Under the pieces are notes generated by a model. It was given only the letters and a program-made list of their open reading frames with translations, made no database searches and was not told the origin of the DNA. From Gammaproteobacteria bacterium (GTDB lineage Bacteria; Pseudomonadota; Gammaproteobacteria; JAJDYQ01), in the NCBI GenBank assembly GCA_963662865.1, contig OY759969.1:1424565-1488564 (forward strand): 64,000 bases of DNA. The letters run 5' to 3'. Each line of letters opens with the position of its first letter. Within the stretch, counting starts at the first letter, position 1. Both the position numbers and the translations under genes were made by a program. Below are positions 9,379 to 61,895 of the stretch, piece after piece.

Positions 9379-9400
9379 ACACCAATCAGCGTTATCATAG

Positions 9401-17668: not shown

Positions 17669-17671
17669 AAT

Positions 17672-31053: not shown

Positions 31054-33097
31054 TACTTTCCTCCATCACTTTACGTTGAAGGAAGGCAATACCTTCTGCC
31101 ATACGCTTTTCCCAAGGATCAGCTGCGGTGATCTCCGGTAAGCGCCCACGCTCCTTTTTGAACTTCAAAGCTCGTTCTGCAAGCTCCCGTGCCTCTTCTT
31201 CGGTAAGATTGATTTTTTTTGCTGCAATAACAGCAGCCACCTGCTTTAAGCTATCTTCAGTCATTGCTTTAGCGAGAATTGCATAGGCCTCGCTGAATGG
31301 ATTGATTCGGTCAATTAAATCAATGTCCAGATCAGTCACATTCATAGCATATTTTCTTACGCCGTCGATAAAGGCAGTACTGCCCCCACGCTCAATATCA
31401 TCATCTTGGCTAGCAATTTCTTTGGCTTTTTGAGTAAGGTTAAGCGCAGCAACAGCATGCTGCCTTACAGCCTCCTGATCTTCCGCATCTAGTTCTGGGT
31501 ATTTATCTTTAACGATTTTCCCCATACGTAACTGCGTTAATTCTTCAGGCACCATCTCTTCGTCAAACAGGCCTCGCTCAAGAGCGTTTTTGTCTTGAAC
31601 GAAAGCGGTAATTACTTCGTTCAAATCTTCCTGACAGATTCGCTGTGCATCTTTGCTTTTAGGCTCGAACAAGCCATTTATCTCTATCTGGAACTGCCCT
31701 GTAGAGGGGTTAAATCCCACATTATTGCCATTCGGATCATAACCATTCTCACCGTAGTCAAAGCCTTCTGCGGGGGTTCCTTGGCTATTTTTGGGTGTGA
31801 AGTTAAATTTAGGCGCTAACACCTGTTCCATAAGGAGGCTGGCAGCAATCGCTTTTAAAGTATCGTTAACTGCATCAGTGACAGCTTCCTCTGAAGCATC
31901 TGGCTCTGCAATCAAGTTAGTAAATCGAGAATGGGTTTTACCTTCAGCATCACGGGTTGCTCGACCGATAATCTGTATAATTTCAGTAAGGCTAGAGCGG
32001 TAGCCAACGGTTAGGGCATGCTCGCACCAAATCCAGTCAAAGCCTTCCTTCGCCATACCTAGCGCGATAATAATGTCGACATGATCTCGATTGCTTTTGG
32101 CTTCAGGAAGTTTTAACGAAGCGGAAACCTGATCACGCTTTGATGAATCATCAACCAAATCCGCTATCTTGAGTATTTTGCCACTTGTTGTTTTTACTAA
32201 TTGGAATCCAGTATCTAAATCTACACCCTGCCACTCGCCAAGCTCATCAATAATATGCTCAACTTCCGTGTTTTTACCACGCTTGGTGCTCTCACGAGAA
32301 TTCACATTGGGGATATGAATGATGGTTTTTTCGTTCGGGTCTAATACGTTCAAAATATCATCTGCGTATGAGTCGGAATAAAAGTAATACCCAATATCCA
32401 AGGTTTTTAGATATTCATAACCGTTAAGCTGTTCGTAGTAGGTATACGTGACCGTATCAAAGTTAGCTTCATCCTGTGGCGAAAGAACAGCTTTTGCATC
32501 ACCTCTAAAATATGAACCTGTCATTGCGACGAGATGTACTTTGTCACGGGCGATAAATTGCCCTAAATGAGCGCCGAGCTTATTGTCTGGGTTAGCGCTA
32601 ACATGGTGAAACTCATCTACGGCGATCAGGCAATCATCAAAGGCAGGCACGCCCAGGCGATCTACCGCAAAACGAAAGGTCGCATGGGTGCAAACCAATA
32701 TTTGATCATCCCCATCAAGAAAGACTTTTACTGAGTTGACTTTACCGCCACCTTCTCCGGGGGAATTACACAAATTCCATTTCGGCTCGACACTCCAATC
32801 CCAGTAGAACCCAAAGTCCGAAAGCGGCTCATTGTTAAAGCTGGCACCAATGGATTTTTCAGGAACTACGATAATGGCTTTTTTAACGCCTTGATTATTG
32901 AGCTTATCTAAAGCCACAAACATCAAAGCACGGCTCTTACCAGAAGCAGGGGGAGACTTGATAAGTAGATATTGCTCACCACGCTTTTCGTAAACGCGCT
33001 CTTGCATCACCAGCATACCTAGTTCATTGGGTTTTTTAGAACTCCCATTGCTGGCATAATTAACAGATACTGAGGGTATAGATTTATGTTCCGTCAT
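31046..33097 (-). CDS. SF2 DEAD/DEAH helicase, type III restriction Res-like (YeeB-like), 683 aa
   Basis: Walker A (SPPASGKS), DEFH (AVDEFHHV), QIIGRATR motif VI, plus a ~230-aa C-terminal extension. It lies between the methyltransferase and the T5orf172 gene with short gaps or overlaps. Confidence 0.75.
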   Translation of the reverse strand: MTEHKSIPSVSVNYASNGSSKKPNELGMLVMQERVYEKRGEQYLLIKSPPASGKSRALMFVALDKLNNQGVKKAIIVVPEKSIGASFNNEPLSDFGFYWDWSVEPKWNLCNSPGEGGGKVNSVKVFLDGDDQILVCTHATFRFAVDRLGVPAFDDCLIAVDEFHHVSANPDNKLGAHLGQFIARDKVHLVAMTGSYFRGDAKAVLSPQDEANFDTVTYTYYEQLNGYEYLKTLDIGYYFYSDSYADDILNVLDPNEKTIIHIPNVNSRESTKRGKNTEVEHIIDELGEWQGVDLDTGFQLVKTTSGKILKIADLVDDSSKRDQVSASLKLPEAKSNRDHVDIIIALGMAKEGFDWIWCEHALTVGYRSSLTEIIQIIGRATRDAEGKTHSRFTNLIAEPDASEEAVTDAVNDTLKAIAASLLMEQVLAPKFNFTPKNSQGTPAEGFDYGENGYDPNGNNVGFNPSTGQFQIEINGLFEPKSKDAQRICQEDLNEVITAFVQDKNALERGLFDEEMVPEELTQLRMGKIVKDKYPELDAEDQEAVRQHAVAALNLTQKAKEIASQDDDIERGGSTAFIDGVRKYAMNVTDLDIDLIDRINPFSEAYAILAKAMTEDSLKQVAAVIAAKKINLTEEEARELAERALKFKKERGRLPEITAADPWEKRMAEGIAFLQRKVMEESNG

Positions 33098-33099: not shown

Positions 33100-35874
33100 T
33101 CAGGATACCTTTTTCTTAGAGTTGGAAGTGGATTTGGTCATTTTTGTATAGAGATCAAAAAGCTTTTCAAGGCGCTCAGTGTCATTCTTAAAACGACGAC
33201 CGATGTAAATGCGCTCTAGTACTTCATCATTACGCTCATGTGCCCTACGTAAATCGTCGAGCATTTTTTCAGGGTCATAAAGATCAGCAATTGTTGCAGG
33301 AAAATGAGCTTCGCGGGCTAAAAGAATATCTTCAGCAGATTTCGTTAAGTCTTCTTTATTTTTTACAGTCAGCTTAGGAACAGGAAAAGTGTTCCAGCCG
33401 AGGGTATTGGAATAGTTAAAACGCATTTCCAATCGCCCGCAGACCGTACCAATCCATACCCAATGAACACGTGAGGTAATAAGTGAAAAATTCCATAAAG
33501 GCGCGTCATACATCGCAAAGTTACGGTTACCAACTATTGAATCACCTTCGATATAACCTACTGGCAAAAAATTTCTGTTTTCTGAGCTAACACAAGGAAC
33601 AACTATGACACTAGAGCATTTCTGATATCGGATTTCACCGAATTTATGAGGTGTACTTGCGACTGCGACTGTTTGAGATTTGGAACTTGTAGACCGCATA
33701 TTTTTAACAATTTCAAATCTATCTTCTATTGACTTTAGACGTCTCGCTTCTGCGACATTCTGATCATCGACCCATAAGCAATATCGTTGCTTTCCGTTTA
33801 TAAGCTCCTCTGAACCGATAAATTTGCGAATAAATTTACATACAGCTTCTCGCGACTCACGCTCTATTAAGCTTACGTCCGAACTATCCAGCAACAACCC
33901 CCCACCATCAGTAGGCTTGCTTCCCCAAACCATAGCCCCCCTATCATCTCCAGCCTTCAATACTGGATAAACAATTATATTAGGTGCTGCTATCAAATAA
34001 GCATTTATGTTATTTACCTTCTTTTCTATGGACTCACCATCGTCGGAGATTGAAAATAGGCGTCGCGCCTTACCAGCTTTATTTGATATCCCGACGATCA
34101 CAACGGTAATGCCTGCATTGTGACTAGCCAAATTAGCCCACTTGAAAGAAGTATGTGCAAAAGATATCTCATACCCTGACGAAAAAATCAAAGGCCACAA
34201 TATGAATACTTGCTCTCCTTGGTTTATTGAATTTGTCGATACGAACGCTGATACGGCATCTGTTTTTGTTCCGAAGTCTGCTGCTTTCATGAACCAACCA
34301 GCTACATAATCTAATGACTTCCATTTTTTTGTACGGTGAGAGAAGATATCTTTCAAATCAGATTTTTGCTCTTTGGATTGCCGAGCTTTACCGATATATG
34401 GTGGATTACCACAAATATAAGTTTCGCTTCCTTCATTTTCGAAGTCGATTTCAGCTTGGTCTAGCGGAGAACTGAATAGGTCATCAGCTTGAAGCTTAAC
34501 GCCTAGCCCAGTAGGGGGACATATACTGAACCAATTAAGCCGAAGTGCATTACCGCAAATAATCCAATTCTTTGCATCGAGGGGCAGGAATTCTACTAAC
34601 GCCTCTTTCTGCCCCAGATAGAGAACATCGCATTGGTATTCGGCAATAATTAGAGCGAGACGCGCAATTTCTGCCGGAAAGTCTCGGAGCTCTATACCGC
34701 GATAGTTGGTCAATGGAATATCTGACTTCCTACCAGATTCACCTCTACGTTTATTTATCTCGGCTTCAATGGCTCGCATTTCTTTGTAAGAAATAACGAG
34801 GAAATTTCCCGATCCGCAGGCAGGATCAAAAACTCGGATTTTCGCCATGCGTTTGCGAAGATTGAGCAGCTTTTGAGGACTATCACCAGCCTCTTCAAGC
34901 CTTGCTCTGAGGTCATCCAGAAAGAGTGGATTTAAGACTTTGAGAATGTTTGGAACGGATGTGTAATGAAGCCCTAGCGCGCCACGCTCTTCTTCGTCAG
35001 TTACGGCTTGGATCATTGAGCCAAAGATATCTGGATTGATTTTCGTCCAGTTCAAATTCCCGATATGAATAAGATAAGACCGAGCAATCTTACTAAAGCT
35101 CGGCACATCAGTATTGCCAGAAAATAGGTCACCATTCACGTAGGGGAAGGTATCAGCCCATCCAGGTAACTTAGCGCTTGCTCTTTTTTCAATGGCGGTA
35201 TCCATTGCACGGAATATTTCACTCATAACTTCATGAGTATTTGAGGAGTCCCGCACACTCATTTGCTCAATGGTTTTGGTGAAGAGCCCTTCACCATTGA
35301 AGATATCGGTATCTTCTGCAAAGAAACAGAAAATCAGGCGCGCCATAAAGTGATTCATATCATGACGGCGCTCTGCTGTACCCCAATCAGGGTTATTTCT
35401 TAGCAGCTCAACATAGAGTTTGTTTAAGCGGCTGGTGGCGCGAATATCAAAGGAACTTTCACGGATTTGTTTAACCGTGCTTATACCAGCCAACGGCAGG
35501 AAAAAACCAAAGTGATTAGGGAAGTCACTATAGTCACAGGCAACTGTTTCGCCTGAAGCAATCTCTTCAGCTTCAAAATTTACGCCGTCTGTTGCCAGAA
35601 TGAATTGGGCTTTAGCCTTGGTAGTCGCAGAGCTATCCTTGAGTCTATTTAGGGTGGCAGAAACCTCACCCTCTTCGCACGCTAGAATATGAATATTGCT
35701 GCGCTGTAAAACCCCACCATCAATATCGGAAGCATTAGTGGAGTCACTCTTCAGGCGCTTAATAGTGGTCGCCTTGTTGCCGAATGCTTCCAAGAAGGCA
35801 TAGGGGAAGCTAGCCGCATCAAAAGCTTGCTTGGCTAAATTACTTATCGCTTCTTCTATCTCAACAGCGTTCAA
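33100..35874 (-). CDS. Gamma-class N6-adenine DNA methyltransferase of the MmeI/PglX-like (type IIG/IIL-like) family, 924 aa (YeeA-like)
   Basis: SAM motif I (FDPACGSGNFLV) and catalytic motif IV (YICGNPPYIGK). Family-typical blocks are LIFCFFAEDT, FPYVNGDLF, FVSTNSINQGEQV, KPTDGG, CLWVDD, SSENRNFLPVGY, GRLEMRFNYS, NTFP, LYDP..M..L..AHE..D. A C-terminal TRD-like region is present. The N-terminal ~150 aa lack a clear D-x-ExK nuclease motif. Confidence 0.8.
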   Translation of the reverse strand: MNAVEIEEAISNLAKQAFDAASFPYAFLEAFGNKATTIKRLKSDSTNASDIDGGVLQRSNIHILACEEGEVSATLNRLKDSSATTKAKAQFILATDGVNFEAEEIASGETVACDYSDFPNHFGFFLPLAGISTVKQIRESSFDIRATSRLNKLYVELLRNNPDWGTAERRHDMNHFMARLIFCFFAEDTDIFNGEGLFTKTIEQMSVRDSSNTHEVMSEIFRAMDTAIEKRASAKLPGWADTFPYVNGDLFSGNTDVPSFSKIARSYLIHIGNLNWTKINPDIFGSMIQAVTDEEERGALGLHYTSVPNILKVLNPLFLDDLRARLEEAGDSPQKLLNLRKRMAKIRVFDPACGSGNFLVISYKEMRAIEAEINKRRGESGRKSDIPLTNYRGIELRDFPAEIARLALIIAEYQCDVLYLGQKEALVEFLPLDAKNWIICGNALRLNWFSICPPTGLGVKLQADDLFSSPLDQAEIDFENEGSETYICGNPPYIGKARQSKEQKSDLKDIFSHRTKKWKSLDYVAGWFMKAADFGTKTDAVSAFVSTNSINQGEQVFILWPLIFSSGYEISFAHTSFKWANLASHNAGITVVIVGISNKAGKARRLFSISDDGESIEKKVNNINAYLIAAPNIIVYPVLKAGDDRGAMVWGSKPTDGGGLLLDSSDVSLIERESREAVCKFIRKFIGSEELINGKQRYCLWVDDQNVAEARRLKSIEDRFEIVKNMRSTSSKSQTVAVASTPHKFGEIRYQKCSSVIVVPCVSSENRNFLPVGYIEGDSIVGNRNFAMYDAPLWNFSLITSRVHWVWIGTVCGRLEMRFNYSNTLGWNTFPVPKLTVKNKEDLTKSAEDILLAREAHFPATIADLYDPEKMLDDLRRAHERNDEVLERIYIGRRFKNDTERLEKLFDLYTKMTKSTSNSKKKVS

Positions 35875-37312: not shown

Positions 37313-40300
37313 TCAATGCACCGCTCCCGACTGAGCTGCCCACTTACTGTTATTAATAGCCAGATCAAGCGTCAGCTCGAATAGCGCGTCTCGCTTTTCC
37401 TTGAATAGCTCTTTGTCATAGCTATCCTCCGGAAGATGCTCATCGAGGACCTTGCCAACCCGATCTCTCACACGTAGACGGGTGTCACTGGTCTTATACC
37501 AATCCTGCACCAACACCTTCGGTTTCTCCTCGGTCAGGCGCTTCAGTAAAGCCTTGGCGGCCAGGCGAAGTGTTTGCTCCTCGGCCTTGGTCATCTTGTC
37601 TTTGCGGAGCAGGTCATAGATCTCGAGCTCATCTTCGGTGAGCCCTTCCCGGATGTGCCGCTCGTTTTCTTCTTTCAGGTCCTGCGCGAATTTCACCAGC
37701 TCGGCGAAGGCGGCATCGGCTGAGGTGCTGCCGGCGTTGTAGTTGTCGATGATGTCTTGCAGGCGTTCGGCAAAATCGCGGCGGGTGCGGTTCTGGTTGA
37801 GCATGTCATTAAGTTTTTTCTCAAGAAAGGCCCGGAGGTCGGCAATCTCAATGTTCTTGTAGCTAGCCTGTTTGAAGTCTTTTTTGAGCTTATCGAAATC
37901 GACTTTACTGAGATCCCAGCCCTGCCCCTTCTGCTCAATTTTGTAACCGACCTTGCCCTCTTTAACGCCCTTGAAGTCCGCATCATCAACAATCACGCTT
38001 TCATCTAGCAGTTCGTTGATCTGCTTGACGGCTGAGTCGATGTCCTGCTGCTCGATGATGCTGTCGACCACGCCGCACAGATACTGGAATACGACTACTT
38101 TACGGACCACCGGCTGGCCGAGTACCTCGGGCTTACTGGCCTCGTAGAGCGCTGAGATGGTGTTCTGATAAACCTTGAAAGACTTACGCCACTCATCTTT
38201 AGTCAACAGCTGATCAGCCCAGGTTTTGAACAGCCCTACTTTGGTGAAGATGTCACCGGTTGCCAACGCTTCATCAATATCGATGTCCCGCTCGGCACAA
38301 AAGACCGTGCCCTGTTCAATCGCTTCGTCGAGTAAGCGAAACAGTTCGTCTTTATCTTTCACCGGCGGATCGTCGGTACCTGCATCGCCCTGGCCGTAGT
38401 CCTTGATGGCCTTTTTCAGCCGCCCGATGACGCCGTAGTAGTCAACGATCTCGCCGTTCTTTTTCTCAACACCGTTAATTCGGTAGGAACACACACGGTT
38501 GGCTCGGGCGATGGTCTGCATCAGCGTGTGGTCTTTCTGCGGCTTGTCGAGGTACAGCGTTGACACGGTCGGTGCATCGAACCCGGTCAGCCACATGGCA
38601 CAGACAAACACGAGCTGCAGCGGGTGCTCGGGGTCTTTGAAGTTGTACTCGAGATCATGGCCGTGCTCATCGACGTGTTCCATGCGCTTGCGGTGCGGTC
38701 GCATGTCGAGGTCCTGCTCGTCGAACTTCTCTTCTTCGCCGTTCTCGGCACTGACGACTACGGCCATTTCGACCTTGCGCATATAGTCGATCGTCTTCTT
38801 GAGCCGGGCTTTATGAACTTCATCCTGTGACGTCTTAAGCTCGCCGCGCAGCTTCTTAATCTCCTGCTTCCATCGCAGCTTTACTTTGTCGTGCATCTTC
38901 ACCGCCGTGAACTTGTCCACGGCGATCACCATGCCTTTACCCAAATAACCCCGGCGCGGGAAGTGAAAGACGATGTCATCGGCGATGGTGTCCAGGCGGT
39001 CATCCCGCTTGATCACCTCGAGCTCGCTGGCGAACTTGCGCTCCAGCTTCTCCTGCTGGGCGTCATCGAGGTTCTCGTCCTCGAGAATCTCGCAGAACTC
39101 CTCGCTCAGGTCTTCGTTCTGGTTCAGCACCTTGGGCACACGCTTCTTATAAAAGAGTGGCACGGTGGTGCCGTCGTCCATCGACTGGCTGAAGTTGTAC
39201 TCAGAGACGTATTCGCCAAACCATTCGTTGGTCTTGCGGTCGCGGCCCAGCAATGGTGTACCGGTAAAGGCCAAATACTGGGCCTTGGGCAGAGCCGCCC
39301 GCAGGTTCTCGGCCAGTGACTTGTATTGGGTGCGATGGGCCTCGTCGACAATGACGATGATGTCGTCGCGATTGGACAGCAACGGATAGTCCTGACCTTT
39401 CGGCCAGCGAAATTTCTGAATCAGCGTAAACACCAGCCGCTTGTTCTGCCCGAGGAAGGTACGCATCTGCTCGCTGTCCTTCGGCTGTGCGGCATCGGAC
39501 TTTTTGACGGTGTTGGTGTTGAGGAAATTGCGGTAGATCTGACCGTCGAGATCGTCCCGATCGGTAATTACTACGAAACTGTAGTTACCCTGGCATTTGC
39601 GGAAGATCTTCCGCGCATAGAAAATCATCGAGAAACTTTTACCCGAGCCCTGGGTGTGCCAGAACACACCGAGCTTGCCGCCGAATTCCTCGCGGCGCAG
39701 GAATTTGTCGAAGCCCTTGTTCACACCGATGAACTGATGGTTCTGGGCGATGATCTTCTGCGTCTCTTTGTGATAGATGACGAAGTTCTCGATGTAGTCG
39801 AGCAGCTTGTCATGCGGACACAGGCCGGCGAGAAAACGCTCCGCGCTGGTGCCGTTCTCGCTGATCTGCTCGCGCTTGATCTTTTCCTTCTCGTCGTCGG
39901 GGCGGAGCCAGTGGAAGAAATGCTCCCACTCGGCCGTCAGGCTGCCGACGCGCGTTTCGATACCATTGGAGAACACACACAGCGCGTTGGCGAGGAACAG
40001 CTGCGGGATATCGGCCTTGTAGTTGGTCAGGTTGTCGTCGTAAGCCGAGCGCAGTTTGATGTTGGAGTTTTTCAGCTCGATGAACACCAGCGGCAGTCCG
40101 TTGATGTAGAGCAGAATATCCGGGCGCCGATAGCTCGCCTTGGCCGCCGCACTCGTGCTCTGAATCCACAACTGAGTGACGGCTAGAAACTGGTTGTGCG
40201 GTGAGGCGGGGTCATTGAAATCGATGACCTTGACTCGTTCCTTGCGGTTTCGGCCTTGCTCATCTTTGAACTCGACCCGCACGCCGTCGCGAATCTGGCC

Positions 40301-40588
40301 GTCCACCTCGCGATTGGCGGCAATCATGGACATCGCCTGACGCTTGTCGCACAGCTGTTTGAGTGCATCATCAATCGCGGATTCGGGGATGCCAGGATTC
40401 AACGCGATGGCCGCAGCCTTTAAGCGGTCGTGCAGGATGACATCGCGTTTGTCCTTGCGCCCGGACTTATCGTTGTTCAAGTCGGCGGGATCAGAAGTGA
40501 AGCAATTCAGCGTGTCGTAGCCATAATCATCACGCAGGCGTTGCAACATCGCCTGTTCGATATCGTCTTCCGATATGAAGTTAGGCAT
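37313..40588 (-). CDS. hsdR: Type I restriction enzyme R subunit HsdR
   Basis: 1091 aa. N-terminus MPNFISEDDIEQAMLQRL is typical of HsdR. It has a PD-(D/E)xK nuclease region, SF2 translocase motifs (TQGSGKS, DEAH-like VDEAHRTQ) and a C-terminal helical domain. Confidence 0.9.
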   Translation of the reverse strand: MPNFISEDDIEQAMLQRLRDDYGYDTLNCFTSDPADLNNDKSGRKDKRDVILHDRLKAAAIALNPGIPESAIDDALKQLCDKRQAMSMIAANREVDGQIRDGVRVEFKDEQGRNRKERVKVIDFNDPASPHNQFLAVTQLWIQSTSAAAKASYRRPDILLYINGLPLVFIELKNSNIKLRSAYDDNLTNYKADIPQLFLANALCVFSNGIETRVGSLTAEWEHFFHWLRPDDEKEKIKREQISENGTSAERFLAGLCPHDKLLDYIENFVIYHKETQKIIAQNHQFIGVNKGFDKFLRREEFGGKLGVFWHTQGSGKSFSMIFYARKIFRKCQGNYSFVVITDRDDLDGQIYRNFLNTNTVKKSDAAQPKDSEQMRTFLGQNKRLVFTLIQKFRWPKGQDYPLLSNRDDIIVIVDEAHRTQYKSLAENLRAALPKAQYLAFTGTPLLGRDRKTNEWFGEYVSEYNFSQSMDDGTTVPLFYKKRVPKVLNQNEDLSEEFCEILEDENLDDAQQEKLERKFASELEVIKRDDRLDTIADDIVFHFPRRGYLGKGMVIAVDKFTAVKMHDKVKLRWKQEIKKLRGELKTSQDEVHKARLKKTIDYMRKVEMAVVVSAENGEEEKFDEQDLDMRPHRKRMEHVDEHGHDLEYNFKDPEHPLQLVFVCAMWLTGFDAPTVSTLYLDKPQKDHTLMQTIARANRVCSYRINGVEKKNGEIVDYYGVIGRLKKAIKDYGQGDAGTDDPPVKDKDELFRLLDEAIEQGTVFCAERDIDIDEALATGDIFTKVGLFKTWADQLLTKDEWRKSFKVYQNTISALYEASKPEVLGQPVVRKVVVFQYLCGVVDSIIEQQDIDSAVKQINELLDESVIVDDADFKGVKEGKVGYKIEQKGQGWDLSKVDFDKLKKDFKQASYKNIEIADLRAFLEKKLNDMLNQNRTRRDFAERLQDIIDNYNAGSTSADAAFAELVKFAQDLKEENERHIREGLTEDELEIYDLLRKDKMTKAEEQTLRLAAKALLKRLTEEKPKVLVQDWYKTSDTRLRVRDRVGKVLDEHLPEDSYDKELFKEKRDALFELTLDLAINNSKWAAQSGAVH

Positions 40589-41921
40589 GGGCGGCCTCGG
40601 GTTCAGTGGTCTCTTCCTGCATGCTCGGCGGGAACTGTATGTCGAGGTCTTCCACCGAGAGCTTGCCGGAGATCAGGCGTGGGAGGAGAAGATCACGGGT
40701 TTGTGTTGCAACAGTATTTTCAAGTCCAATCTGATCTTTAAGATCCAGTATTGGCTTCACAGCATCTTCAAATTGCTGCTGAAGAGTAGCGGGAGGAGTC
40801 AACATCTTATGGTGTTTGAGAAAACTCTCAAACTGATAATTACTGATCCCTGTGGATTGAACTTGAAATATCCCGACGAGCCCTTGCTCATAAAACAACT
40901 TCAGATACTGCTGCATCAGATACGGCGAAACCTTTTGACGGTCGAATCGAATCAACTTACAGAAACTGGCTGGAATCACCGTTTCCGGAAGGGAGCTCAA
41001 AAGCGAACTAGATACTCGAACGTTTCGTCCAAGCAACTGATTCTTGCTACCACCAGATACTTCGAACACAAAATCATCTGGCTGCATGATGCGGGACTTG
41101 AGATTTGACGCCGTATGAAAACGAAACGGCATTGAAGACAAGTCCGCTCGCTGGACCTTTGGAATGTCTGTTCCGCGAATCACAAATGCCGACTCGCTGT
41201 ACCCAGATGTCTGATCCTCTTCACCCCAGCCCCCTCCAATGTAGTGCTCGATGAGGGCTCCCATGCTCTTCGGTTCCCAACCTTCAGGCACACCTTTGAC
41301 GAACTTGGCGGCTTGGTGGCCAGGGAAGCGCATGCGGACGAACCATTCGCGGTAGAGCTCCTCGGCCATCTTTTCGAGCAGGGCGATGCGGCGTTTGTTG
41401 GTCTCGATCAGGTCGTCATACGCCGACAGAATTGCAGCGATTCGTCGCTTCGCCTCTGGGCTGGGCGCTATTACCGGAACCTTACGTAAATCCGTTAACC
41501 CAACGAACTGCTGGCTGGTCCCAGTAAGGAAGGTGTCAAGAGCCGCCTGACCAATGGAGCTTGTAAGATAGTAGTATAACCACATACCGTCATCTCGGCT
41601 GCGGCTTTTGAATAACCCAATATTTTTGATCGCGAAATTAGGTCTATCTCGGACAAGCGCCATCTGACCGACGGTTCCGATCATTGAGAACAAGACATCC
41701 CATTGATCCACTTTGCTACGTTTATTAACCGCATCAAAATCAGCAGTGCTGATGTTGTAGGCGCCATCAAGTTTGATCTGACCTTCTTTTAAATTCTTGG
41801 ATGTAATGAGGGGATACCCATCATCTGCAGGCTTTGGCGTGTCGTGAGTCCCGTCCGCCACACGAAGACAAAAGTCGGACGACTTTTCCACAGTCCACCC
41901 AGCTGGAAGTACAGCTTTCAT
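40581..41921 (-). CDS. hsdS: Type I restriction-modification specificity subunit HsdS (two target-recognition domains)
   Basis: 446 aa. Its stop and start overlap hsdR and hsdM. It has conserved central and C-terminal coiled-coil spacer motifs (LPRLISGKLSV). Confidence 0.8.
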   Translation of the reverse strand: MKAVLPAGWTVEKSSDFCLRVADGTHDTPKPADDGYPLITSKNLKEGQIKLDGAYNISTADFDAVNKRSKVDQWDVLFSMIGTVGQMALVRDRPNFAIKNIGLFKSRSRDDGMWLYYYLTSSIGQAALDTFLTGTSQQFVGLTDLRKVPVIAPSPEAKRRIAAILSAYDDLIETNKRRIALLEKMAEELYREWFVRMRFPGHQAAKFVKGVPEGWEPKSMGALIEHYIGGGWGEEDQTSGYSESAFVIRGTDIPKVQRADLSSMPFRFHTASNLKSRIMQPDDFVFEVSGGSKNQLLGRNVRVSSSLLSSLPETVIPASFCKLIRFDRQKVSPYLMQQYLKLFYEQGLVGIFQVQSTGISNYQFESFLKHHKMLTPPATLQQQFEDAVKPILDLKDQIGLENTVATQTRDLLLPRLISGKLSVEDLDIQFPPSMQEETTEPEAAHA

Positions 41922-44002
41922 TCGTTGTTCGCCAGCTCTTGAACATTAGCGAGGATTACATCTTCCAAGCCCTTGGAAACCTGACTTATCGAGGCAAGGT
42001 CGTCACTCATTCTTACTAGGTCATCGATGAACTCCTCCTCCGTCTTACCGTCCTCCTCAATCACAACGCCGACATAGCGGCCCGGGTTGAGTGAGTAGTC
42101 CTGCTCCTTGACCTCGTCGAGATCAGCCAGTTTGCACAGGCCGGTAACGTCTTCGTATTTGGCCTCGGGGAAACGTTCCTGTAGCCAGTGGATGTGGCCG
42201 AAGAAGCTTTCGGCATTCTTAACCTCTGCATGCAGAGTTTCGAGGGCAGTCTTGAGGTATTTGGTGGCGCGATCAGACGTCTGGCGTTTGCCCGCCTCCT
42301 TGGCGTTCTCCGCAAGTGTTTTCTCGTGACGGCGCACAGACTTATCGATCTGCTTCAGACAGCCGTGCAGTTGAGTGAAGAAGGGATCGAAGGTGGTGCG
42401 CAGTGCCTGCTGGGCGGCGTTCTGCTTGTCAGCTGTCGTTTTACCACCGTTAATCTTTTGATAAGCGGCGTAAGCCTTCTGAAGCGAGTCGAGATCATCC
42501 CAAGTTTCTACCAGGCTGGCGACGGCGTCTTTACCCGTTTTGTCAGCGAGAACTTCTAAAATCTGTGCCGACACCGGCTCTACTTGAGATTTGTTCTCGG
42601 CGAGGCGTTTCATGCCCGCAGCGAAATAACCATCGATAAGGTTCAAGAACTCGTCGCGACGACCTTTGTGCAGGCGGCTGATGATGGCGATGTTCTGAAT
42701 CTGTTCCGCCGAGAACTCGCGATGGGCGCGATCGATCTGGGTGAATATGTTGCGGGCGTCGATGAACAGGATGCGATCGTCGGTCTTGCCCTTGTCGAAG
42801 AACCAGAGCGTGGCCGGCAGGGTGACGGTGTAGAACATGTTCGACGGCAGAGTAAGCATGCCGTAGATAAGACCCTTTTCTATGAGGGTCTGACGAATAT
42901 CGGCCTCTGAATGACGGGCATCGGAGGCGGAATTGGCCATGACGAGCGCGGCACGGCCAGAACCCTCTTTCAGCGAGGTGGCGAAGAGATTGATCCAGAG
43001 GTAATTGGCGTTGGGGACGGTTTCCTTGCCCTTGTCCGACTTTTTGGCCTTGGTTTTCTTGCGTGGGATACCGTATTCGTTGAAGCGCGGGTCATTCTCC
43101 ACGTCTGCAAGCGAGACCTCATCCACGTTGAACGGGGGATTGGCGAGCACGTAGTCGAACTTGCCGAGCGAATCAAAATGATCCTCGTAATAGGTGATGC
43201 CCTGCTTGATCTCGCCGCGCAGGCCGTTGACTGCGAGGTTCATACGGGCGAGCTTGACGGTTTCGCTCTCTTTCTCCTGCCCCGATACGAACACACTGGT
43301 ATCGGTGCCCTGCGCTTCCAGCTCCTTGCGGTGCTCTTCGATAAACTGCGCCGACTGCACGAACATACCGCCCGAGCCGCAAGCCGGGTCGAAGACCGTG
43401 CCGCCGTGGGGCTCGATGATCTCGACCATGAGCCGCACCACCGAGCGGGGCGTAAAGAAGGTGCCGCCGCCCTGTCCTTCGGCCAGTGCGAACTTGCCGA
43501 GGAAGTATTCGTAGATGTGACCAAAAATATCGCCGGTTGTGTGGTCCGGAATGTTGTCGAACTGCCGGAGCAAATCGAACGGCAGCGTCTTCATCTGCTC
43601 GGTGCGGGTGAGGCGGTGGTACTCGTCCTTCGGCAGGCTGCCTTCGAGCTCGGGCTTGTAGGTCTCGATGGACTCCATCGCCTCTTCCAGCGCCTTGGCG
43701 ATGTCCTGATCTTCGGGCAGATCGAGCAGGTAGCTGTAGCGGGCGTGACCCGGGAGGTAGAAACCACACTTGGCAATGGCGATTTCTTCGATCGGTTTCT
43801 CGCGACGGGTGCCTTTGAGCTTGTCGAACTCGGCCTGGATGGCTTTTTCATGCCGACGGTAGTTGATGTCGGCGAACTTGAGGAAGATCAGGCCGAGGAC
43901 AGGGGTGCCATATTCCGAGGCTTTGAGGTCGGAGTTGGCGCGGAGGTTGTCGGCGGCAGACCAGAGGTCGTCTTGAAGTTGTTTTAGTTGTTCCGGGGTC
44001 AT
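41918..44002 (-). CDS. hsdM: Type I restriction-modification N6-adenine methyltransferase HsdM (long form, 694 aa)
   Basis: HsdM_N domain, SAM motif (DPACGSGGMFV) and catalytic NPPF (VLANPPFN). Its start overlaps hsdS by 4 nt. Confidence 0.9.
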   Translation of the reverse strand: MTPEQLKQLQDDLWSAADNLRANSDLKASEYGTPVLGLIFLKFADINYRRHEKAIQAEFDKLKGTRREKPIEEIAIAKCGFYLPGHARYSYLLDLPEDQDIAKALEEAMESIETYKPELEGSLPKDEYHRLTRTEQMKTLPFDLLRQFDNIPDHTTGDIFGHIYEYFLGKFALAEGQGGGTFFTPRSVVRLMVEIIEPHGGTVFDPACGSGGMFVQSAQFIEEHRKELEAQGTDTSVFVSGQEKESETVKLARMNLAVNGLRGEIKQGITYYEDHFDSLGKFDYVLANPPFNVDEVSLADVENDPRFNEYGIPRKKTKAKKSDKGKETVPNANYLWINLFATSLKEGSGRAALVMANSASDARHSEADIRQTLIEKGLIYGMLTLPSNMFYTVTLPATLWFFDKGKTDDRILFIDARNIFTQIDRAHREFSAEQIQNIAIISRLHKGRRDEFLNLIDGYFAAGMKRLAENKSQVEPVSAQILEVLADKTGKDAVASLVETWDDLDSLQKAYAAYQKINGGKTTADKQNAAQQALRTTFDPFFTQLHGCLKQIDKSVRRHEKTLAENAKEAGKRQTSDRATKYLKTALETLHAEVKNAESFFGHIHWLQERFPEAKYEDVTGLCKLADLDEVKEQDYSLNPGRYVGVVIEEDGKTEEEFIDDLVRMSDDLASISQVSKGLEDVILANVQELANNE

Positions 44003-44037: not shown

Positions 44038-45876
44038 TCATACTCGCTCCGCAAGATCCCGCTCTAACCAAGCCGGATCCCAAATCTCTTCCGCGAGCTG
44101 GCGGTATAGCGCTTGGCGTGAGTCCATATCAGCTTTCTTGAAATCCTTGTGGGCCTTGAAGGGCAGCGCCGACTCCTTGATAAAGTGCTTAAAGCCCGGA
44201 TTGTGACTGTAAGCGCCTTCATGGAGGCTCCGCGCCAGCAGATTCTGACCGTTGTAGTGCTCCAGTTTTTTCATGTAGGGCAAATCGCCATAGCTGGCAT
44301 TGAAGCTCTTCGGCAACAGCAGGAGTCCGCCGATTCGATCCCGGTACTCCAAGAAATCCGCTGGATGAATAAATTCATCTGTGTGCCGTTCCGGCTGATT
44401 GGCCCAGATATGTTCGATTTCGTATCCGTTTTTGCCTTTACGCTGAATGTATTCGGGGTAGTGGGATGCTCCACCCGCTGAGGTTTCAATGAAGTCCGTC
44501 ATTCGCGCCAGCATCCTGTGAATCTGCTGCTTATTCATGCCGTGCATGCTAAATCGATCATTTGACGCGAATGTTTCCGTTTCGCTGGCCAGCCTCTTTT
44601 CAAGTAGCTCAACAAGTTCAGATGCCGATTTACTCCGAATCTCTTTGATCACCAGAAACATAGCGTACTGCAGGTTCGAGTAACTAATCGCCCGCCAATT
44701 CCACACGCGCCGCGCAATCAGGATATTCAGATATCTCGAGACGATCCGGAGCTTCTGGCGAATCTGGTCTTCCGAGTCCGCCATCTTGAGGGGCGCTAGC
44801 AAGACCGGATACTGCAGGGTGAAGTTGTTCTGCGCATTGAAGTGAATGCACTCGAGCCCTGCGGTTAACGCGTTAGCTGCCTCACGGACCTTTTTGTACC
44901 AACGGGCGTAGAACGAGAATTCATTCTGGATGAACTCCGCGAAATCCGAATCGGTCGCCAGCCCGAGGGCGTCCTCATGCGCGCGGACCCAGCGGTGAAA
45001 CTCGGTACCGATCAGATCGAAGTCCTGAGGCAGGGCGCCCCGCTTGCGCTCGCGAATGCTCTTAGCATGCTGACTGCGCAGCCAGGATTTAATCGCATCG
45101 GAGTCTTCCTCCTTGCCCAGGGTTTGCAGCTCGGCAATCATCTTGCGCCAGACCACGCTAGCCTGATTGCGTTTGTCCGGATCTGAGATATTGGCGAGCA
45201 AATAGCCCTTCAGCATATCGGTGGCCGTCAATGACAGGCCACGATCATTCATCGTCTCGAAGATCGTATAAGCGTCATCATCCGAGTACGCAGTGATCTC
45301 GACCAGATGCACGTTTTCGATCAGCCAATCCGTGAAATACGGCAAGGCCTGTTGCTCAAGCTCCTCGGGGAATTGATCCTCGATATCGCGATGGCGTGCC
45401 AGAATATTGGCGACGGATTCTGGCTGGTCCGCCTCATCGAACGGCGAACCGGTAAACAGCGCCTCCATGCAGTCGTTGCGCTCGGGGACATCAAGATTGA
45501 ACGAGCGTTTGCCGTACTTCTGCGAAAAAATCAGCTCGGCGAGCTGACCCTGCTGATTGGCGTCGTCTAACAGTTTGTGGAGATAGACGAGCAGTAAGGT
45601 CAGCGTGGTGAGGCGCTGCTGGCCGTCGATAATGAATTTCTGGCCGTCGCGGTCACTAATGATGATCGAGCCGAGAAAATAGTGGCCGTATTTTTCAACC
45701 TCTGAGCGTTTGTGGGTCGCGTCGTAGCTTTCCCGGAACTTCTCGACTAGATCATCGATCAGCTCTTGGACTTGCTTGGGCTGCCAACGGTATTCGCGCT
45801 GGTAGTAGTCGATGGCGTACTTTGAGCCACCGAGGAGTTTTCGGAGGTTTTGCGCGTCGCCGCGGATTTCTTTCAT
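44038..45876 (-). CDS. GmrSD-like type IV (modification-dependent) restriction endonuclease: DUF262 (ParB-like NTPase) N-domain plus DUF1524 (His-Me/HNH-like) C-domain
   Basis: DUF262 signature IIDGQQRLTTL near the N-terminus. C-terminal His-Me finger block GYEIEHIWANQ. 612 aa. It is first in the operon with hsdM-hsdS-hsdR (36-nt gap to hsdM). Confidence 0.75.
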   Translation of the reverse strand: MKEIRGDAQNLRKLLGGSKYAIDYYQREYRWQPKQVQELIDDLVEKFRESYDATHKRSEVEKYGHYFLGSIIISDRDGQKFIIDGQQRLTTLTLLLVYLHKLLDDANQQGQLAELIFSQKYGKRSFNLDVPERNDCMEALFTGSPFDEADQPESVANILARHRDIEDQFPEELEQQALPYFTDWLIENVHLVEITAYSDDDAYTIFETMNDRGLSLTATDMLKGYLLANISDPDKRNQASVVWRKMIAELQTLGKEEDSDAIKSWLRSQHAKSIRERKRGALPQDFDLIGTEFHRWVRAHEDALGLATDSDFAEFIQNEFSFYARWYKKVREAANALTAGLECIHFNAQNNFTLQYPVLLAPLKMADSEDQIRQKLRIVSRYLNILIARRVWNWRAISYSNLQYAMFLVIKEIRSKSASELVELLEKRLASETETFASNDRFSMHGMNKQQIHRMLARMTDFIETSAGGASHYPEYIQRKGKNGYEIEHIWANQPERHTDEFIHPADFLEYRDRIGGLLLLPKSFNASYGDLPYMKKLEHYNGQNLLARSLHEGAYSHNPGFKHFIKESALPFKAHKDFKKADMDSRQALYRQLAEEIWDPAWLERDLAERV

Positions 45877-51040: not shown

Positions 51041-54000
51041 CTACCAGCGCAGCTTCCACTGTGCGCCGATGCCGTGGTTGGTTTTGCCTTCACCGTCCCG
51101 GCGGCGCAGCGCCTTGACGTCCAGCTCGGTATCCAGGTCACCCGGTGCCGACAGCAGGCGCCAGCCCAGGGTCAGGTCGTACCCGGAATCGGACGACGAC
51201 AGGCCCGCATACGGGATGCCGGTGGCGCCGTCCTTCAGGGCCAGGCCCCACTCGCCCTCCAGGCTCCAGCGACCGGAGGCCGGGCCGGGTTGCGATGAAT
51301 CCTCCTCCAGTGCGTCCGACAGCGAATCCGACAACAGCCGATCCAGGCCGCCCGAGGCCGGAGCGGTGCCGTATTCCTGACGTAGACTCAGCGACGGCCC
51401 ATGAGCGGAACCCGGCTGCCGGTCGTAGCGCAGCGAACCGGACACGCCCCATTCACGCCGCTCGTCGGCCTCATGATCCAGCAGGCGCCGGCCACGCAGG
51501 TCAATGGTCAAGCCCTTGGAGGGCAACTGCCAACTGATACCGCCGCCCAGTTCCACGCCCAGGCCGTCGCTGGTATCGCCGCCGTCATAGCGCATCCCCA
51601 ACTCCAGTTCCGGAATCAGTCGGCCACCGTCCGCCTGCGGCAACTGCCAGGACCACTCCAGACCCATTCGGAAACGCTCCGTGTCCGCCGACATACCCGA
51701 TACACCGTCGGCATCGTCCGACTCAATACGCGCCAATGCCGCATCCGAGATCAGCGTCAGCGTCAGGCCGCCCTCTTCCATCGGGCGCTCCAGCAGTATC
51801 CCGCGCACACCGGCCGAGGCCGATCTCTGCTCGATGTCATGCTCCGTACTCATCGTGGCCGAAGTCTGCTCCAGGGTCTGCTCCAGCTCGCCACGGCCAT
51901 AACTCGCCGCCGCCCACACCTGTAATCGCTGCGTTACGTTATGCCGGATATACGGCAGCAGCGAGGTCAGTGTGCTCGACAACTCGCCCTGTGCCGAAGT
52001 GCCGCTCCAATCGCCATCGCCGTCGCTGTACGACAGCGCCAGACCCAGCAGCGTGCGGCCATTGTCACGATCCACGCCCAGCATGCCGGTGGTCACATCG
52101 CCATCCACCGTGATGCCGTCCTGGCCATCCTCGTAGCGCGAGTACGACGCCTGACCCCACACCGAAACTCCGTTCTCCCCGCCGCGGTGCACAAAGCGGC
52201 TGCCGCGCAGCATATCGCGCAGCGACAGTGTCCTGGACAGATTCAATAGCCGGTCAACCGAACCGGCGCCCAGGCCATCACCGCCGCCTCCGCCCTGGCC
52301 GAAGCCGTCCGTGCCCAAACCATATCCCGTGCCGGTTGCATTACCGCCCCCATGCAGCGCTCGACCAGCGGACAGGCCGCTCACATTGCCCGACAGCCCA
52401 GGTTGATCGGCCACCGAAAAGCGGTAATCCAGGCCGCCCAGCAGATGCTCTATCGCCGTCAGGCCGAAGCGCGGCAACCAGGCTTCCTGTGCCGCCTGCA
52501 TCGCCCCCGTACCGACCGCCACGTCGTCGGTGACCGTGACTGCCACTGTGGCTATGGCCAGACCATCCGGGTAACCCGCACCGTCGCCGTCGCCGCTGTC
52601 TATACTATGGCTGATGATCGCCGTGCGGTTACCGTTACCGCCAACGTTGTCGTTGACGCCCGTCACCGTCACCGTCTGCGCCGTACTCCAGTTGCCCGCC
52701 GTGAACGTCAGGCTCAGCGGCGCCACGGTCGCCGCACTGGTCATGTTCGATTCCACCGTAATCTCCACATCGCCGGCTGGTCGTGTGTTCAGCACCAGGG
52801 TGTAGATGTCTGTACCGTCAGGCTCAGCGACCGTTACCCTGGCATCGCTGACGATCACGCCCGGGTCGTTGTCGGCGATCGTCAGTGTGTGCACACGATC
52901 GGTGCCCACCGTGTAACCCGAACCTGCGGCCAGGGTCAGTATGACCGTCTCGCTGCCCTCTTGTGTGCTGTCATCGGTGATGGCCACGGGAATATTAACG
53001 CTGGACGCGCTCGCAGACGCCACGACCGTGCCGGTCAGCTCGGTGTAGTCGGTATCGGGTGTCGCTGTGCCGGCCACGGTGTAGGTGATCGTGGTGTTCG
53101 CGGCTGGCACCGGACTTAGATTGACCACTACGTTGTACGTGCCCGAGCCTTCGTTGGTAGTAAAACCGGGCACGGCGAACGAGGCGACCGGCACGTCGTC
53201 GTCGGTGACCGTGACTGCCACCGTGTCTATGGCCAGACCATCCGGGTAACCCGCACCGTCGCCGTCGCCGCTTTCTATACTATGGCTGATGGTCGCCGTG
53301 CGGTCACCGACAACGCTGTCGTTGACGCCCGTCACCGTCACGGTTTGCGCCGTATTCCAGTTGCCCGCCGCGAACGTCAGGCTGGCTGCGCTCACGGTCG
53401 CCGCACTGGTCGTGCCGGATTCCACCGTAATCACCACGTTACCAGCCGGCTGTGTGTTCAGCACCAGGGTGTAGGTGCCCATCGCATTCTCTGCAACCGT
53501 TAAGCTGGCCTCGCTGACGGTCACGCCCGCGGAGGCGGCGACAATGTCGAAGGCATCCAGGTTATCCGTGCCGTCCGCGCCGCCGCCCAGGCCGGTGCCG
53601 GAGTCACCGTCCAGGGTGCCCAGGTCGATGTCCACTGTGCCAGCGTTGACTGCGCTCAGGGTCAGCGTGGCGGTGGTGGCCGTCATGCCCGAAGACGGGC
53701 CGGTGAAGGTCACCATGGCGCTGGCACTGTTCAGGCCGCTGTAGGCGACGCCGGTCGCCGTGGCGCCGGTCACGGTGTAATCCGTGCCCGGTGTCGCGCT
53801 ACCGCCAAAGGTCAGCGGCACCGGCAGTATCTCACCGTCTTCCAGACCGCGCCCCAGGGTCACGGTGATTGCCCTGGTGTCGCCTTCTGTGATGTCGCCT
53901 GACGCGCCCGCCAGGGTCACGGTGGTGGCGTCGTTGTCGGTGATCGTCAGTGTGTGAACATCGGGGGAACCTGACCCGTAAACGCCAGGGCGTACTCCCA

Positions 54001-60000: not shown

Positions 60001-61029
60001 GTGTGTCCAGCGTCATGCCGTAGCTGTCCGTGGTGCCACCTTCGATGGGCGTGGTGCCGCCGTCCGTCTCGGTGATGGTTACGCCCGGTGGGGGTGGGTC
60101 GTTGACCCGCACGTCGAAGCTGTTGGTGGTGCTGCTCGGGTCGGCACCGCCGCCGACATTGGTGCCCAGGGTTGAGCGGTCAAAGCCGTTGGCACCGTCG
60201 CCGTCCGGGCCGAGGGCGATGGTGTAGGTCTCGAAACCGTCGCCCTCGGCGGTGTCGTCGTTTGCCGGGGTCAGTGTCAGGATGGCGGTCTGGGCGCCCA
60301 ACCCCGAAAAGCTCACCTGCGGGATGGCCGTGGTCTGACCCGACAGGGTCACTCCGGTATTGAGGCCGTCGCCAATCGCGGGCTCCAGGCGCCAGTCGGC
60401 CGTGGTCACCCCCGTACCGCCGACGGACAGCGGCACGTCAATGGTTTCGCTAGCAGTCAGTGGTCGAGACAGGTTGACGAGAAAGGCCACCAAGTCGCCT
60501 TCGCTAATGGCGCCGGTGCCACCAAAACGGGTGAGGGTAACGACCGTGGGCTCGTCGTCGATCACCGTCGCCGTGACGGGGGCCGGGGTGAGGTTGTAGT
60601 TGGTGTCTGAAGAGGTAGCGGCGTGGGTAATGGTGACTGCCTGGTTGGCGGCGTCGGCGGCATTATTCACCCCGGTGACGGTAATGCTCTGCGCCATGTT
60701 CCAGTTGGCGTTGGTGAATATCAGGCTGGTGGGGTTGACCGTGGCGGTGCCCGGTGTGCCTGAGGTGGCTGTGATGGTCACATCTGAGGTCGGTTGTGTG
60801 TCCAGCACCATGCCGTAGCGGTCCGTGGTACCGCCTTCGATGGGCCTGGTGTTGCCGCCCGTCTCGGTGATGGTTACGCCTGCCTGCGCGGCGGCTTCGG
60901 TTGTCAAACCCACCGACAACGGCAAACCAAGCAACACGGCAATCAGCCCGCGGGCCAGGAGGCTATTGCGGGCAGAGGTGAATCGACGGGCTGCCGAACG
61001 CCGCCCTGTATTGAGGGTGAGGCTCATCA
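51041..61029 (-). CDS. Giant autotransporter-type adhesin (~3330 aa from the MMSLTL start): signal peptide, at least four tandem ~263-aa repeat units containing Calx-beta-like domains, further Calx-beta/Ig-like repeats, C-terminal outer-membrane beta-barrel
   Basis: N-terminus MMSLTLNTGRRSAARRF...LPLSVGLTTEAAAQA is a signal peptide. Repeating blocks are ITETGGNTRPIEGGTTD.YGMTLDTQPTADVTITATSG...VTGV.N..DAANQ.VTI.HAATS.DT.YN, followed by Calx-beta-like TVV.LTR.GG...ISEG..I...V.LSR.L...E.IDVPLS.GGTGVT. The final ~700 aa are Gly/Ser-rich alternating beta-strands ending ...GAQWKLRW-stop with an aromatic terminal residue, as in autotransporter barrels. The gene is much more GC-rich than flanking DNA. 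The ORF-track start at 61180 would read through the poly-C tract (PPPPPPPPP) and is probably an artefact. Confidence 0.8.
57700..61020 (-). repeat. Four or more tandem near-identical ~790-bp coding repeat units in the 5' part of the autotransporter gene
   Basis: The ORF track shows near-identical antisense peptides recurring at 58449, 59241, 60030 and 60825 (MSVVPPSMG.V.PPVWVM.T...). A second series recurs at 57498, 59028, 59814 and 60600. The spacing is 786-795 bp. Confidence 0.75.
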
Positions 61030-61052
61030 TAAACCCCTTAATTTTGTAGAGA

Positions 61053-61080
61053 AGGGGGGGGGGGGGGGGGGGGGGGGGGG
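61053..61080. repeat. 28-nt homopolymeric G (plus) / C (coding strand) tract 23 nt upstream of the autotransporter start codon
   Basis: Direct count in the sequence: G x28 at 61053-61080. On the coding strand this is C28-TTCTCTACAAAATTAAGGGGTTT-ATGATG, with AAGGGG as the likely SD. Confidence 0.9.
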
Positions 61081-61520
61081 TATTAAATTGTGTATGTCGC
61101 CTGTAGCGCGTTTCAGGGGCATTGTGACCACGTTTATCTCCTGTGTCTTGACGGTGTGCAACCGGCCTTGTGGGCCGCATTTATTTCCAATCTGTTTCAA
61201 CTTGCTCTACTCCGGGTTCTGTATACCGATGTTGTCTCTGTTCAGGCCCGGCCTGCGGGCCGGTTCCGAATTCAGGCCCGGATTTATGCCGGCAATTTGA
61301 GCTACTTTAGACCCATTCTTGACGAATTACAACCCCTTTTTTCTGATTTGGTTGCTGACTGAGATAAAATCAGCGGTCTGCACCGCAGCGGCAAATCCGG
61401 CGACATATTAATGGGACCGGTGGAGCGAATATATCTGGCCTGACAAAATCGGCGATGCCACGAATAGTTTTTCATTGTATTAACCGTCGCTTGTCTCTGG
61501 CTGGCCGATGCCTCTTTGTT

Positions 61521-61895
61521 TCAAAAGTGCCTGCCAAGCATGGCGCCTGCCCATGCCCCGGCGACGCATAGAACGACGCTAAGCAGGATATTCAGCGCGG
61601 CTTTTGATAATTCGCCATTTTCAATCAGGTTTAGCGTTTCCACGGAAAATGTGGAGAAGGTGGTGAACGCACCGAGCAGGCCGATCAGAATGGCTGAACG
61701 CAGTTCAGGATTGATTTGTACCCGGTCCATAAACAGGACGTAGCATAACCCCATTAGCAGGCTGCCGCTGACGTTGACGATTAATGTGCCATAGGGAAAT
61801 TCTTTACCGAGTAAAGTATGGATGCCGGTCGATACATAGAAGCGCAGCAGTGTGCCAATCGCGCCACCACCCGCTATGGCCAGCGCCTGCATCAT
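61521..61895 (-). CDS. crcB: Fluoride ion channel CrcB (FluC)
   Basis: 124 aa with four TM segments. It has the CrcB signature GAFTTFSTFS and N-terminal GGAIGTLLR. Its start overlaps the rarA stop by 4 nt. Confidence 0.85.
   Translation of the reverse strand: MMQALAIAGGGAIGTLLRFYVSTGIHTLLGKEFPYGTLIVNVSGSLLMGLCYVLFMDRVQINPELRSAILIGLLGAFTTFSTFSVETLNLIENGELSKAALNILLSVVLCVAGAWAGAMLGRHF

Follow-up and report, generated by a model that had tools for sequence, protein, structure and literature searches.

A very long homopolymer directly in front of a gene for a predicted giant surface protein raises the question of whether the tract varies in length and, if so, whether its length sets how much of the protein is made. 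To our knowledge, nearly all contingency loci have been described in cultured, host-adapted pathogens, usually with tracts shorter than 20 nt. The tract studied here precedes a 10-kb gene in the window, by which we mean the whole 64,000-nt stretch of DNA that was analyzed. The host belongs to an uncultured gammaproteobacterial lineage whose relatives fall in JAJDYQ01, the GTDB order-level clade named after one close relative (PMC11427306).

A 27-nt homopolymer lies next to the RBS of a giant gene

On the plus strand, the run comprises 27 G residues (61054 to 61080), which are read as C27 on the minus strand, the strand of the gene. The preliminary description had reported a G28 tract at 61053 to 61080. 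The homopolymer itself is real, but because position 61053 is an A, the run is 27 nt long rather than 28. On the minus strand, C27 is followed by TTCTCTACAAAATT (61053 to 61040), AAGGGG, TTT, and two successive ATG codons (61030 to 61028 and 61027 to 61025). The end of the run is 14 nt from AAGGGG and 23 nt from ATGATG; this reading bore out both the 23-nt distance and the placement just 5' of the Shine-Dalgarno-like sequence given in that description. The coordinates of the features are listed in Table 1.

TABLE 1 Coordinates and assignments of features in the window
Feature	Position	Strand	Remark
crcB	61521..61895	-	Synteny with relatives ends with this gene; no DNA homology beyond its stop codon
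Terminator-like hairpin with T-rich tail	61373..61386	-	Downstream of crcB; consensus scan only
Best sigma-70-like candidate, TTGTAA-17-TAAAGT	61304..61332	-	Predicted; -10 ends 274 nt before ATG
C27 homopolymer (G27 on plus strand)	61054..61080	-	Hypermutable tract; unique in window and 1.4-Mb background
AAGGGG, Shine-Dalgarno-like	61034..61039	-	14 nt 3' of tract; 3 or 6 nt before the two ATGs
ATGATG start of giant gene	61025..61030	-	From paralog N termini, database gene call, and GC3 shift
Giant protein gene, 3329 aa	51041..61030	-	Calx-beta and related repeats in passenger; GC 65%, GC3 0.80
49-residue extended signal peptide, MMSLTLNTGRRSAARRFTSARNSLLARGLIAVLLGLPLSVGLTTEAAAQ	60884..61030	-	Conserved in P0245 to P0248; role read from sequence only
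C-terminal 486-aa domain, ...GIGAQWKLRW	51044..52501	-	Homologous to autotransporter beta-domains
DEAD/ResIII helicase	25725-28976		Defense island
ORF without Pfam match	28973-29806		Defense island
T5orf172/MUG113 protein	29836-31053		Defense island
ORF without Pfam match	31046-33097		Defense island
MmeI-family restriction-modification enzyme	33100-35874		Defense island
Type I hsdR/hsdS/hsdM	37313-44002		Defense island
GmrSD	44038-45876		Defense island

The assessment that such a run is far beyond chance was also upheld. The next-longest runs in the window are 5 nt for G and 7 nt for C, and the longest G or C run in 1.42 Mb of background sequence (85 loci fetched from other Proteobacteria) is 10 nt. 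With equal base frequencies, our own arithmetic gives about 1e-11 expected G or C runs of at least 27 nt in 64 kb. Measured against these values (27 C versus 7 in the window and 10 in the background), the tract has the character of the hypermutable repeat of a contingency locus. The sole G or C run of at least 10 nt in the 1.4-Mb background is a G10 at positions 13521 to 13530 of locus L006, which belongs to the 'Candidatus Poriferihabitaceae' chromosome OZ243931.1.

The gene probably encodes an autotransporter of a large paralog family

The Calx-beta repeats of the giant protein are arranged as long internal repeats at the DNA level. Its C-terminal domain has 6562 relatives and always forms the C-terminal end of proteins of 600 to 6300 residues. 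Homologs of the domain in P0253 (67% identical), P0298, and P0299 scored 40 to 53 bits against Pfam PF03797 (Autotransporter; cutoff, 26), and the window's own C terminus gave no Pfam match at E ≤ 1, below the PF03797 threshold. Comparison of the domain with PDB sequences returned noise only, and its single-sequence AlphaFold model had a pLDDT of 33 and was unusable. At the other end of the protein, the N-terminal leader of 49 residues has a hydrophobic core and an AAAQ motif, and all paralogs end in ...KLRW. As read from the sequence, these are the Sec signal peptide and the C-terminal aromatic residue of type Va autotransporters. Because the protein has Calx-beta repeats and homologs of its C-terminal domain match Pfam Autotransporter, it is probably a classical autotransporter with a Calx-beta passenger; the word adhesin is suggested by this domain architecture. 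With a predicted signal peptide, Calx-beta repeats, and an autotransporter-type C-terminal domain, the gene is of the surface or interaction class associated with contingency loci. The C27 run and the domain architecture together agree with the preliminary description, which had placed a slippage substrate beside the gene of a giant secreted or surface protein.

The protein is one of many in its genome. Together with at least nine giant paralogs, it is encoded on one 2,573,357-bp contig (P0245 to P0252; fragments P0262, P0019, and P0032). The paralogs have the C-terminal domain in common, at 78 to 96% identity (84% for P0245 by tblastn). The giant paralogs range from 1400 to 6300 aa and together make up about 93 kb, roughly 3 to 4% of the 2.57-Mb genome by our own arithmetic. 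The family is also present in a related genome (2,513,604 bp; ENA ERZ25070917). At one locus of that genome, L087 (positions 1 to 15252 and 17133 to 18252), two giant family members (4748 aa and 4083 aa) are arranged in tandem, with fragmented Transposase_mut genes after them. Metagenome scans with the N-terminal 250 aa and with an alignment of the signal peptides found no relative, a profile search with the signal peptide gave no match, and the region had no match among Escherichia coli genomes and plasmids. Exact-sequence matching of the proteins of crcB and rarA, of the ABC binding protein, and of paralogs P0019, P0032, P0247, and P0248 gave nothing, whereas the protein collection has these sequences on the 2,573,357-bp contig; none of these searches brought up another carrier of the giant gene.

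Homologous loci carry tracts of different lengths

Among the paralogs of the window's genome, P0248 has a gene call that begins at an upstream ATG; its sequence is MMTKPLQAATGDLHNLM-PPPPPPPP-NGVF-MLSLATDTGRRS..., with NLM before the proline run. Because eight prolines stand four codons before the conserved Met, the protein implies a C run of 23 to 24 nt, located 12 to 13 nt before the conserved start; these values come from the protein and not from DNA. In the related genome, the homolog P0256 has a C-terminal domain that is 63% identical, and its locus, L086, was read as DNA. It carries C20 at positions 2962 to 2981, followed by AAATGGGAGGGTATATCTG and then ATG, so that the run precedes the start by 19 nt and a GGGAGGG RBS by 4 nt. 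L086 and P0248 have the same motif behind the tract (N-G..., AAATGGG), and this match suggests common descent of the tract-plus-RBS unit. The upstream flanks of the window and L086 share no homology (local score of 15, compared with 14.1 ± 2 for shuffles); thus, the tract was kept while its surroundings diverged. In all, such a tract is present at three loci, which belong to two genomes.

A second reading of the L086 locus was available from a short ORF. A 75-aa ORF called across its tract, P0398, contains six prolines (...NTA-PPPPPP-KWEG...). Its 90%-identity cluster has one other member, P0399, which comes from a different 17,121-bp ENA contig and differs from P0398 in having nine prolines, not six, and a single R-to-K substitution close to its end; the two are otherwise identical. 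At the L086 locus, one assembly has C20 and a second has C29, the latter length being read from protein and not from DNA. Because proline counts reveal only differences that are multiples of three, the difference between C20 and C29 is a lower bound on the variation. The contig of the related genome, ctg125689_254x_c, has a name that looks like the output of an assembler for long-read metagenomes, which we presume it to be, and the exact tract lengths in that genome are therefore uncertain by a few bases; a 9-nt difference is not a base-or-two assembly error. Tract lengths at homologous positions are 27, 23 to 24, 20, and 29 nt, and they differ both at the L086 locus (C20 versus C29) and between paralogs of the same genome (27 versus 23 to 24). 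The comparison of tract length across isolates that the preliminary description had called for was thereby made in a related genome, at the L086 locus, and it revealed a difference.

A hypermutable leader tract is the best explanation

Because the tract recurs, differs in length, and belongs to a surface-protein family, a slipped-strand contingency locus fits the observations. We assign a probability of roughly 55% to the following reading as a whole. The C27/G27 run would be a hypermutable homopolymer in the transcribed 5' leader, immediately 5' of the RBS, and several family members would bear their own C run of 20 to 29 nt at the same position. Slipped-strand mispairing would alter the length of each run independently, and the length changes would produce heritable but unstable variation in the amount of each paralog made. 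The expected behavior is that of a graded or volume-type contingency locus, not of a frameshift or promoter-spacer switch; because the latter two subtypes fail their defining tests, as described below, the leader- or RBS-proximal subtype remains. That length changes would alter expression has precedents in the upstream or leader homopolymers of Moraxella, Helicobacter, and Bordetella surface genes, which are compared below. Characterized switch tracts are about 6 to 18 nt long, shorter than the 20 to 29 nt seen here, and slippage at such lengths may be so frequent that the states are barely heritable.

The tract most likely lies in a long 5' leader

The best sigma-70-like candidate upstream of the gene scored 10.1, where the 95th percentile of the best scores of shuffled sequences was 10.7. 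It is located just downstream of the terminator-like hairpin that follows crcB. At L086, the best candidate (TTGCCA-17-TAAGAT) exceeds the 95th percentile of shuffles and lies 270 nt before the ATG, compared with 274 nt in the window. In addition, a weak -10-like sequence, CACAAT, is found 6 nt upstream of the tract and would place the transcription start at the tract itself. From either candidate promoter, the tract would be transcribed as a poly-C part of the leader, and its most likely location is a long 5' leader of the giant gene. An Rfam scan of the leader gave chance-level matches only, with no riboswitch or other family.

The preliminary description had also considered that length changes would alter promoter geometry. 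In its form as a spacer between -35 and -10 elements (about 17 nt), this idea did not hold. The tract alone measures 27 nt, which is too long for the spacer, and the promoter scan found no pair of -35 and -10 hexamers flanking it. The interval between the tract and the RBS is only 14 nt, too short to accommodate a -10 element and a leader.

Several other signals were noted in the intergenic region. An element of about 105 nt occurs twice in direct orientation on the minus strand (61236 to 61346 and 17040 to 17149, 44 kb apart), with 76% identity between the copies (E about 5e-15). It holds the TTGTAA-17-TAAAGT candidate (with TAAAGC instead in the other copy) and, behind it, a GC-rich hairpin; no further copy was found in 87 related loci. 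Candidate identities for this element are a small RNA gene, a repeated regulatory region, and a miniature repeat element. On the plus strand, a terminator-like hairpin, CGGCCTTGTGGGCCG, with a T-rich tail (61163 to 61187) points away from the giant gene. It lies about 85 nt beyond the G tract, and no convincing plus-strand promoter was seen either upstream of it or for an antisense RNA that would contain G27. A decayed adhesin fragment was also considered for the sequence preceding the tract, and this interpretation was rejected; a 33-nt resemblance (61094 to 61126) to an internal repeat of family D17 was treated as chance.

The leader RNA may be read by RBS pairing, Rho, or both

Under the hypermutable-tract reading, the length of the run would be read out on the mRNA. 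The C run would pair with the G-rich RBS, or Rho would load on C-rich, G-poor, unstructured RNA, or both would occur. C-rich, G-poor, unstructured RNA is the composition that Rho prefers, and around the tract the leader contains 41% C and 15% G and is less prone to fold than shuffled sequences (z = +1.8). In the window, 65% of the pairing that ViennaRNA partition functions predict for the RBS is with the tract; at L086, the share is 85%. The RBS of L086 is predicted to be unpaired with a probability of 0.55 if the tract is removed and 0.15 if it is present; the corresponding values in the window are 0.23 and 0.13. The predicted pairing between the RBS and the tract saturates at six or more C residues; because of this saturation, RBS pairing alone cannot make a tract of 20 to 29 nt length sensitive, and length-dependent RBS occlusion was rejected as the switch mechanism. 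Rho loading is the route that could depend on tract length.

The same data could be explained by a fixed cis-regulatory element whose length variation is incidental, which we regard as unlikely. In its RNA form, RBS sequestration and a Rho site in the C run would keep the 10-kb gene off by default; in its DNA form, a G-quadruplex of the template-strand G27, which satisfies the G-quadruplex motif, would impede RNA polymerase. The tract always abuts a G-rich RBS (AAGGGG, GGGAGGG, and N-G-V in P0248), and the large share of RBS pairing taken by the tract, the decrease in RBS accessibility at L086, and the composition and poor folding of the leader all speak for such an element. However, six C residues would suffice for RBS pairing, leaving a length of 20 to 29 nt unexplained, and the RBS of the window is predicted to be mostly paired even without the tract. 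A fixed element and a contingency locus can also coexist at the same site.

Two further ideas extend these readings. First, a poly-C leader of 20 to 29 nt could be a dedicated regulatory module that is conserved across species, in which anti-RBS pairing is combined with length-scaled loading of Rho or a poly-C-binding factor, and slippage would set an independent, heritable volume for each paralog. We consider this proposal doubtful; if it is true, the module would be a new type of rheostat that works through the leader. Second, the G27 strand might act as a G-quadruplex that initiates recombination between paralogs, a possibility modeled on Neisseria pilE.

The giant gene is located in accessory DNA

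Upstream of the giant gene, lolA, rarA, and crcB lie on the same strand. The closest relatives by a protein search with RarA are 87 to 89% identical, and a genome scan with RarA gave relatives of at most 68% identity among the matches listed. In the close relatives the gene order is ftsK-lolA-rarA-crcB-serS, and the giant gene is absent there. Because DNA homology stops at the crcB stop codon, the giant gene lies in accessory DNA; because crcB is followed by serS without the adhesin, the close relatives are uninformative on tract length at this site. The crcB-serS synteny (L081, L083, and L085) breaks exactly at position 61521, and serS is not in the remaining 61 kb, indicating a large insertion or rearrangement. 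The giant gene has a GC3 of 0.80, compared with 0.47 to 0.61 in neighboring genes, which suggests foreign origin or strong codon bias.

This setting is compatible with a functionless runaway microsatellite that is tolerated in noncoding DNA, at the 5' margin of a gene cassette that duplicates or moves horizontally. The homology between copies begins at the tract, with unrelated upstream flanks; the composition of the giant gene appears foreign; the gene occupies the place where relatives have serS; and one paralog of the related genome, at L087, has no tract and instead a strong predicted promoter 158 nt upstream. Nevertheless, the tract has been kept 12 to 23 nt before the ATG despite C-terminal domains that are only 63% identical and flanks that have diverged, and no similar run occurs elsewhere in the approximately 1.5 Mb examined. 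A tract without function is therefore a quite improbable explanation in our judgment.

Elsewhere in the window, a low-GC (42 to 49%) defense island at 25181 to 45876 adjoins tRNA-Leu(CAG).

The evidence places the translation start downstream of the tract

The longest ORF runs from an ATG at 61180 to 51041 (3379 aa), as in the ORF call cited by the preliminary description, and the tract is indeed in frame with it. The codons across the tract are ACC, eight CCC, and the C of CTT, so the run contributes eight proline codons and not nine. This ORF raises the possibility of a frameshift switch, in which translation would start at 61180, pass through a poly-proline leader, and be turned off by indels that are not multiples of three; in a variant, an upstream ORF would control the main start. 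Upstream ATGs in frame through the tract are present in the window, P0248, and L086, and TGATG stop/start overlaps occur at both main starts (window and L086).

The evidence on the start codon points the other way. From the Met at 61030, the N terminus reads MMSLTLNTGRRSAARRF...LIAVLLGLPL...EAAAQ, a long signal-peptide-like leader. In four paralogs (P0245 to P0248), a start M-L-S-L aligns with M1, and the conserved sequence begins exactly there. The protein collection contains the 3329-aa product starting at MMSL, and the 3379-aa product is absent from it. Along the giant gene GC3 is 0.80, whereas it is 0.39 over the 100 nt that precede the tract. On the basis of the paralog N termini, the database call, the AAGGGG RBS, and the shift in GC3, we place the start of translation at 61030 and not at 61180. 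The tract is therefore not coding and lies outside the translated ORF, with the start 23 nt downstream of it, and the suggestion in the preliminary description that length changes would shift the frame of a poly-proline leader is not sustained.

The frameshift switch meets further difficulties. The N-terminal extensions show no sequence relationship to one another, the conserved Met is preceded by a separate RBS, and the predicted signal peptide begins at that Met. By chance alone, an ATG would precede a stop in roughly one frame in four. In both the window and L086, two upstream ATGs in different frames enter the tract; because of these two frames, every tract length would give a mixture and no clean states, and a clean three-state model of upstream ORFs was rejected. 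We consider the frameshift switch very improbable.

Finally, an assembly or sequencing artifact, such as a poly-G read artifact joining unrelated contigs, is barely credible: long homopolymers are error prone and the synteny with relatives breaks in the intergenic region of the tract, but a similar tract is found at two other loci of homologous genes, in three assemblies, an RBS and a start codon 23 nt away would be unlikely at a random contig end, and two-color poly-G artifacts, which sit at the 3' ends of reads, could not supply a G run that starts the downstream flank.

Comparison with known systems

If the tracts tune expression, stochastic surface variation reaches environmental or symbiotic bacteria, and it does so by a leader- or RBS-proximal design that departs from the classical promoter-spacer and frameshift types. 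Gene callers let ORFs continue across C tracts, as in P0248 and in the longest ORF of the window; for this reason, N-terminal proline runs can be used to find such tracts in protein databases.

In Bordetella, the tracts of the fim genes are located within the promoter, between activator (BvgA) sites and the -10 element, and the C stretch is said to have been described originally by Willems et al. in 1990. A poly-C tract lies upstream of each of fim2, fim3, and fimX, and its length correlates with the transcript level (PMC1891110). The window resembles this system in having coding-strand poly-C in front of a gene for a surface structure, with one tract per gene and, in fim, independent variation by slippage. 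In contrast, the fim tracts are 7 to 18 nt long and lie in the promoter, whereas those described here are 20 to 29 nt long and 0 to 14 nt from the RBS, so close that a -10 element and a leader cannot be accommodated downstream.

The tract of uspA1 in Moraxella catarrhalis is about 170 nt from the start codon. This G(n) tract of 8 to 12 nt upstream of the ORF produces graded high or low mRNA levels rather than ON/OFF expression (PMC7302503). It shares with the window a G/C homopolymer upstream of a large autotransporter-class gene; however, UspA1 is a trimeric autotransporter, and the leader RNA of the window would carry C, not G, at the RBS.

In Helicobacter pylori tlpB-hp0102, a leader repeat of 6 to 16 G residues is targeted by the small RNA RepG and acts as a posttranscriptional rheostat (PMC8295292). 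This is a variable homopolymer inside a 5' untranslated region, as is predicted for the window. The G repeat of tlpB is read by a C/U-rich loop of the small RNA, whereas the leader here carries C, and the sole G-rich partner found for it was the gene's own RBS.

One homopolymer per gene is also known from other surface-protein multigene families. In the tpr genes of Treponema pallidum and the vlp genes of Mycoplasma hyorhinis, each gene has its own upstream homopolymer, about 7 to 12 G for tpr and about 17 to 20 A for vlp, located at or upstream of the promoter. Several members of the family described here show the same arrangement, and the tpr and vlp tracts differ in being shorter and in their position at or upstream of the promoter. 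For the HMW adhesins of Haemophilus influenzae, one report describes intergenic 7-bp repeats and a 5'-untranslated-region RNA element, the effect of the tract involving 5'-untranslated-region structure and mRNA processing (PMC12721329). The HMW tract is a heptanucleotide repeat, compared with a homopolymer here.

Taken together, the system described here differs from the known ones in tracts of 20 to 29 nt that abut the RBS, would place C in the mRNA, and belong to a family of giant putative autotransporters in an uncultured environmental lineage.
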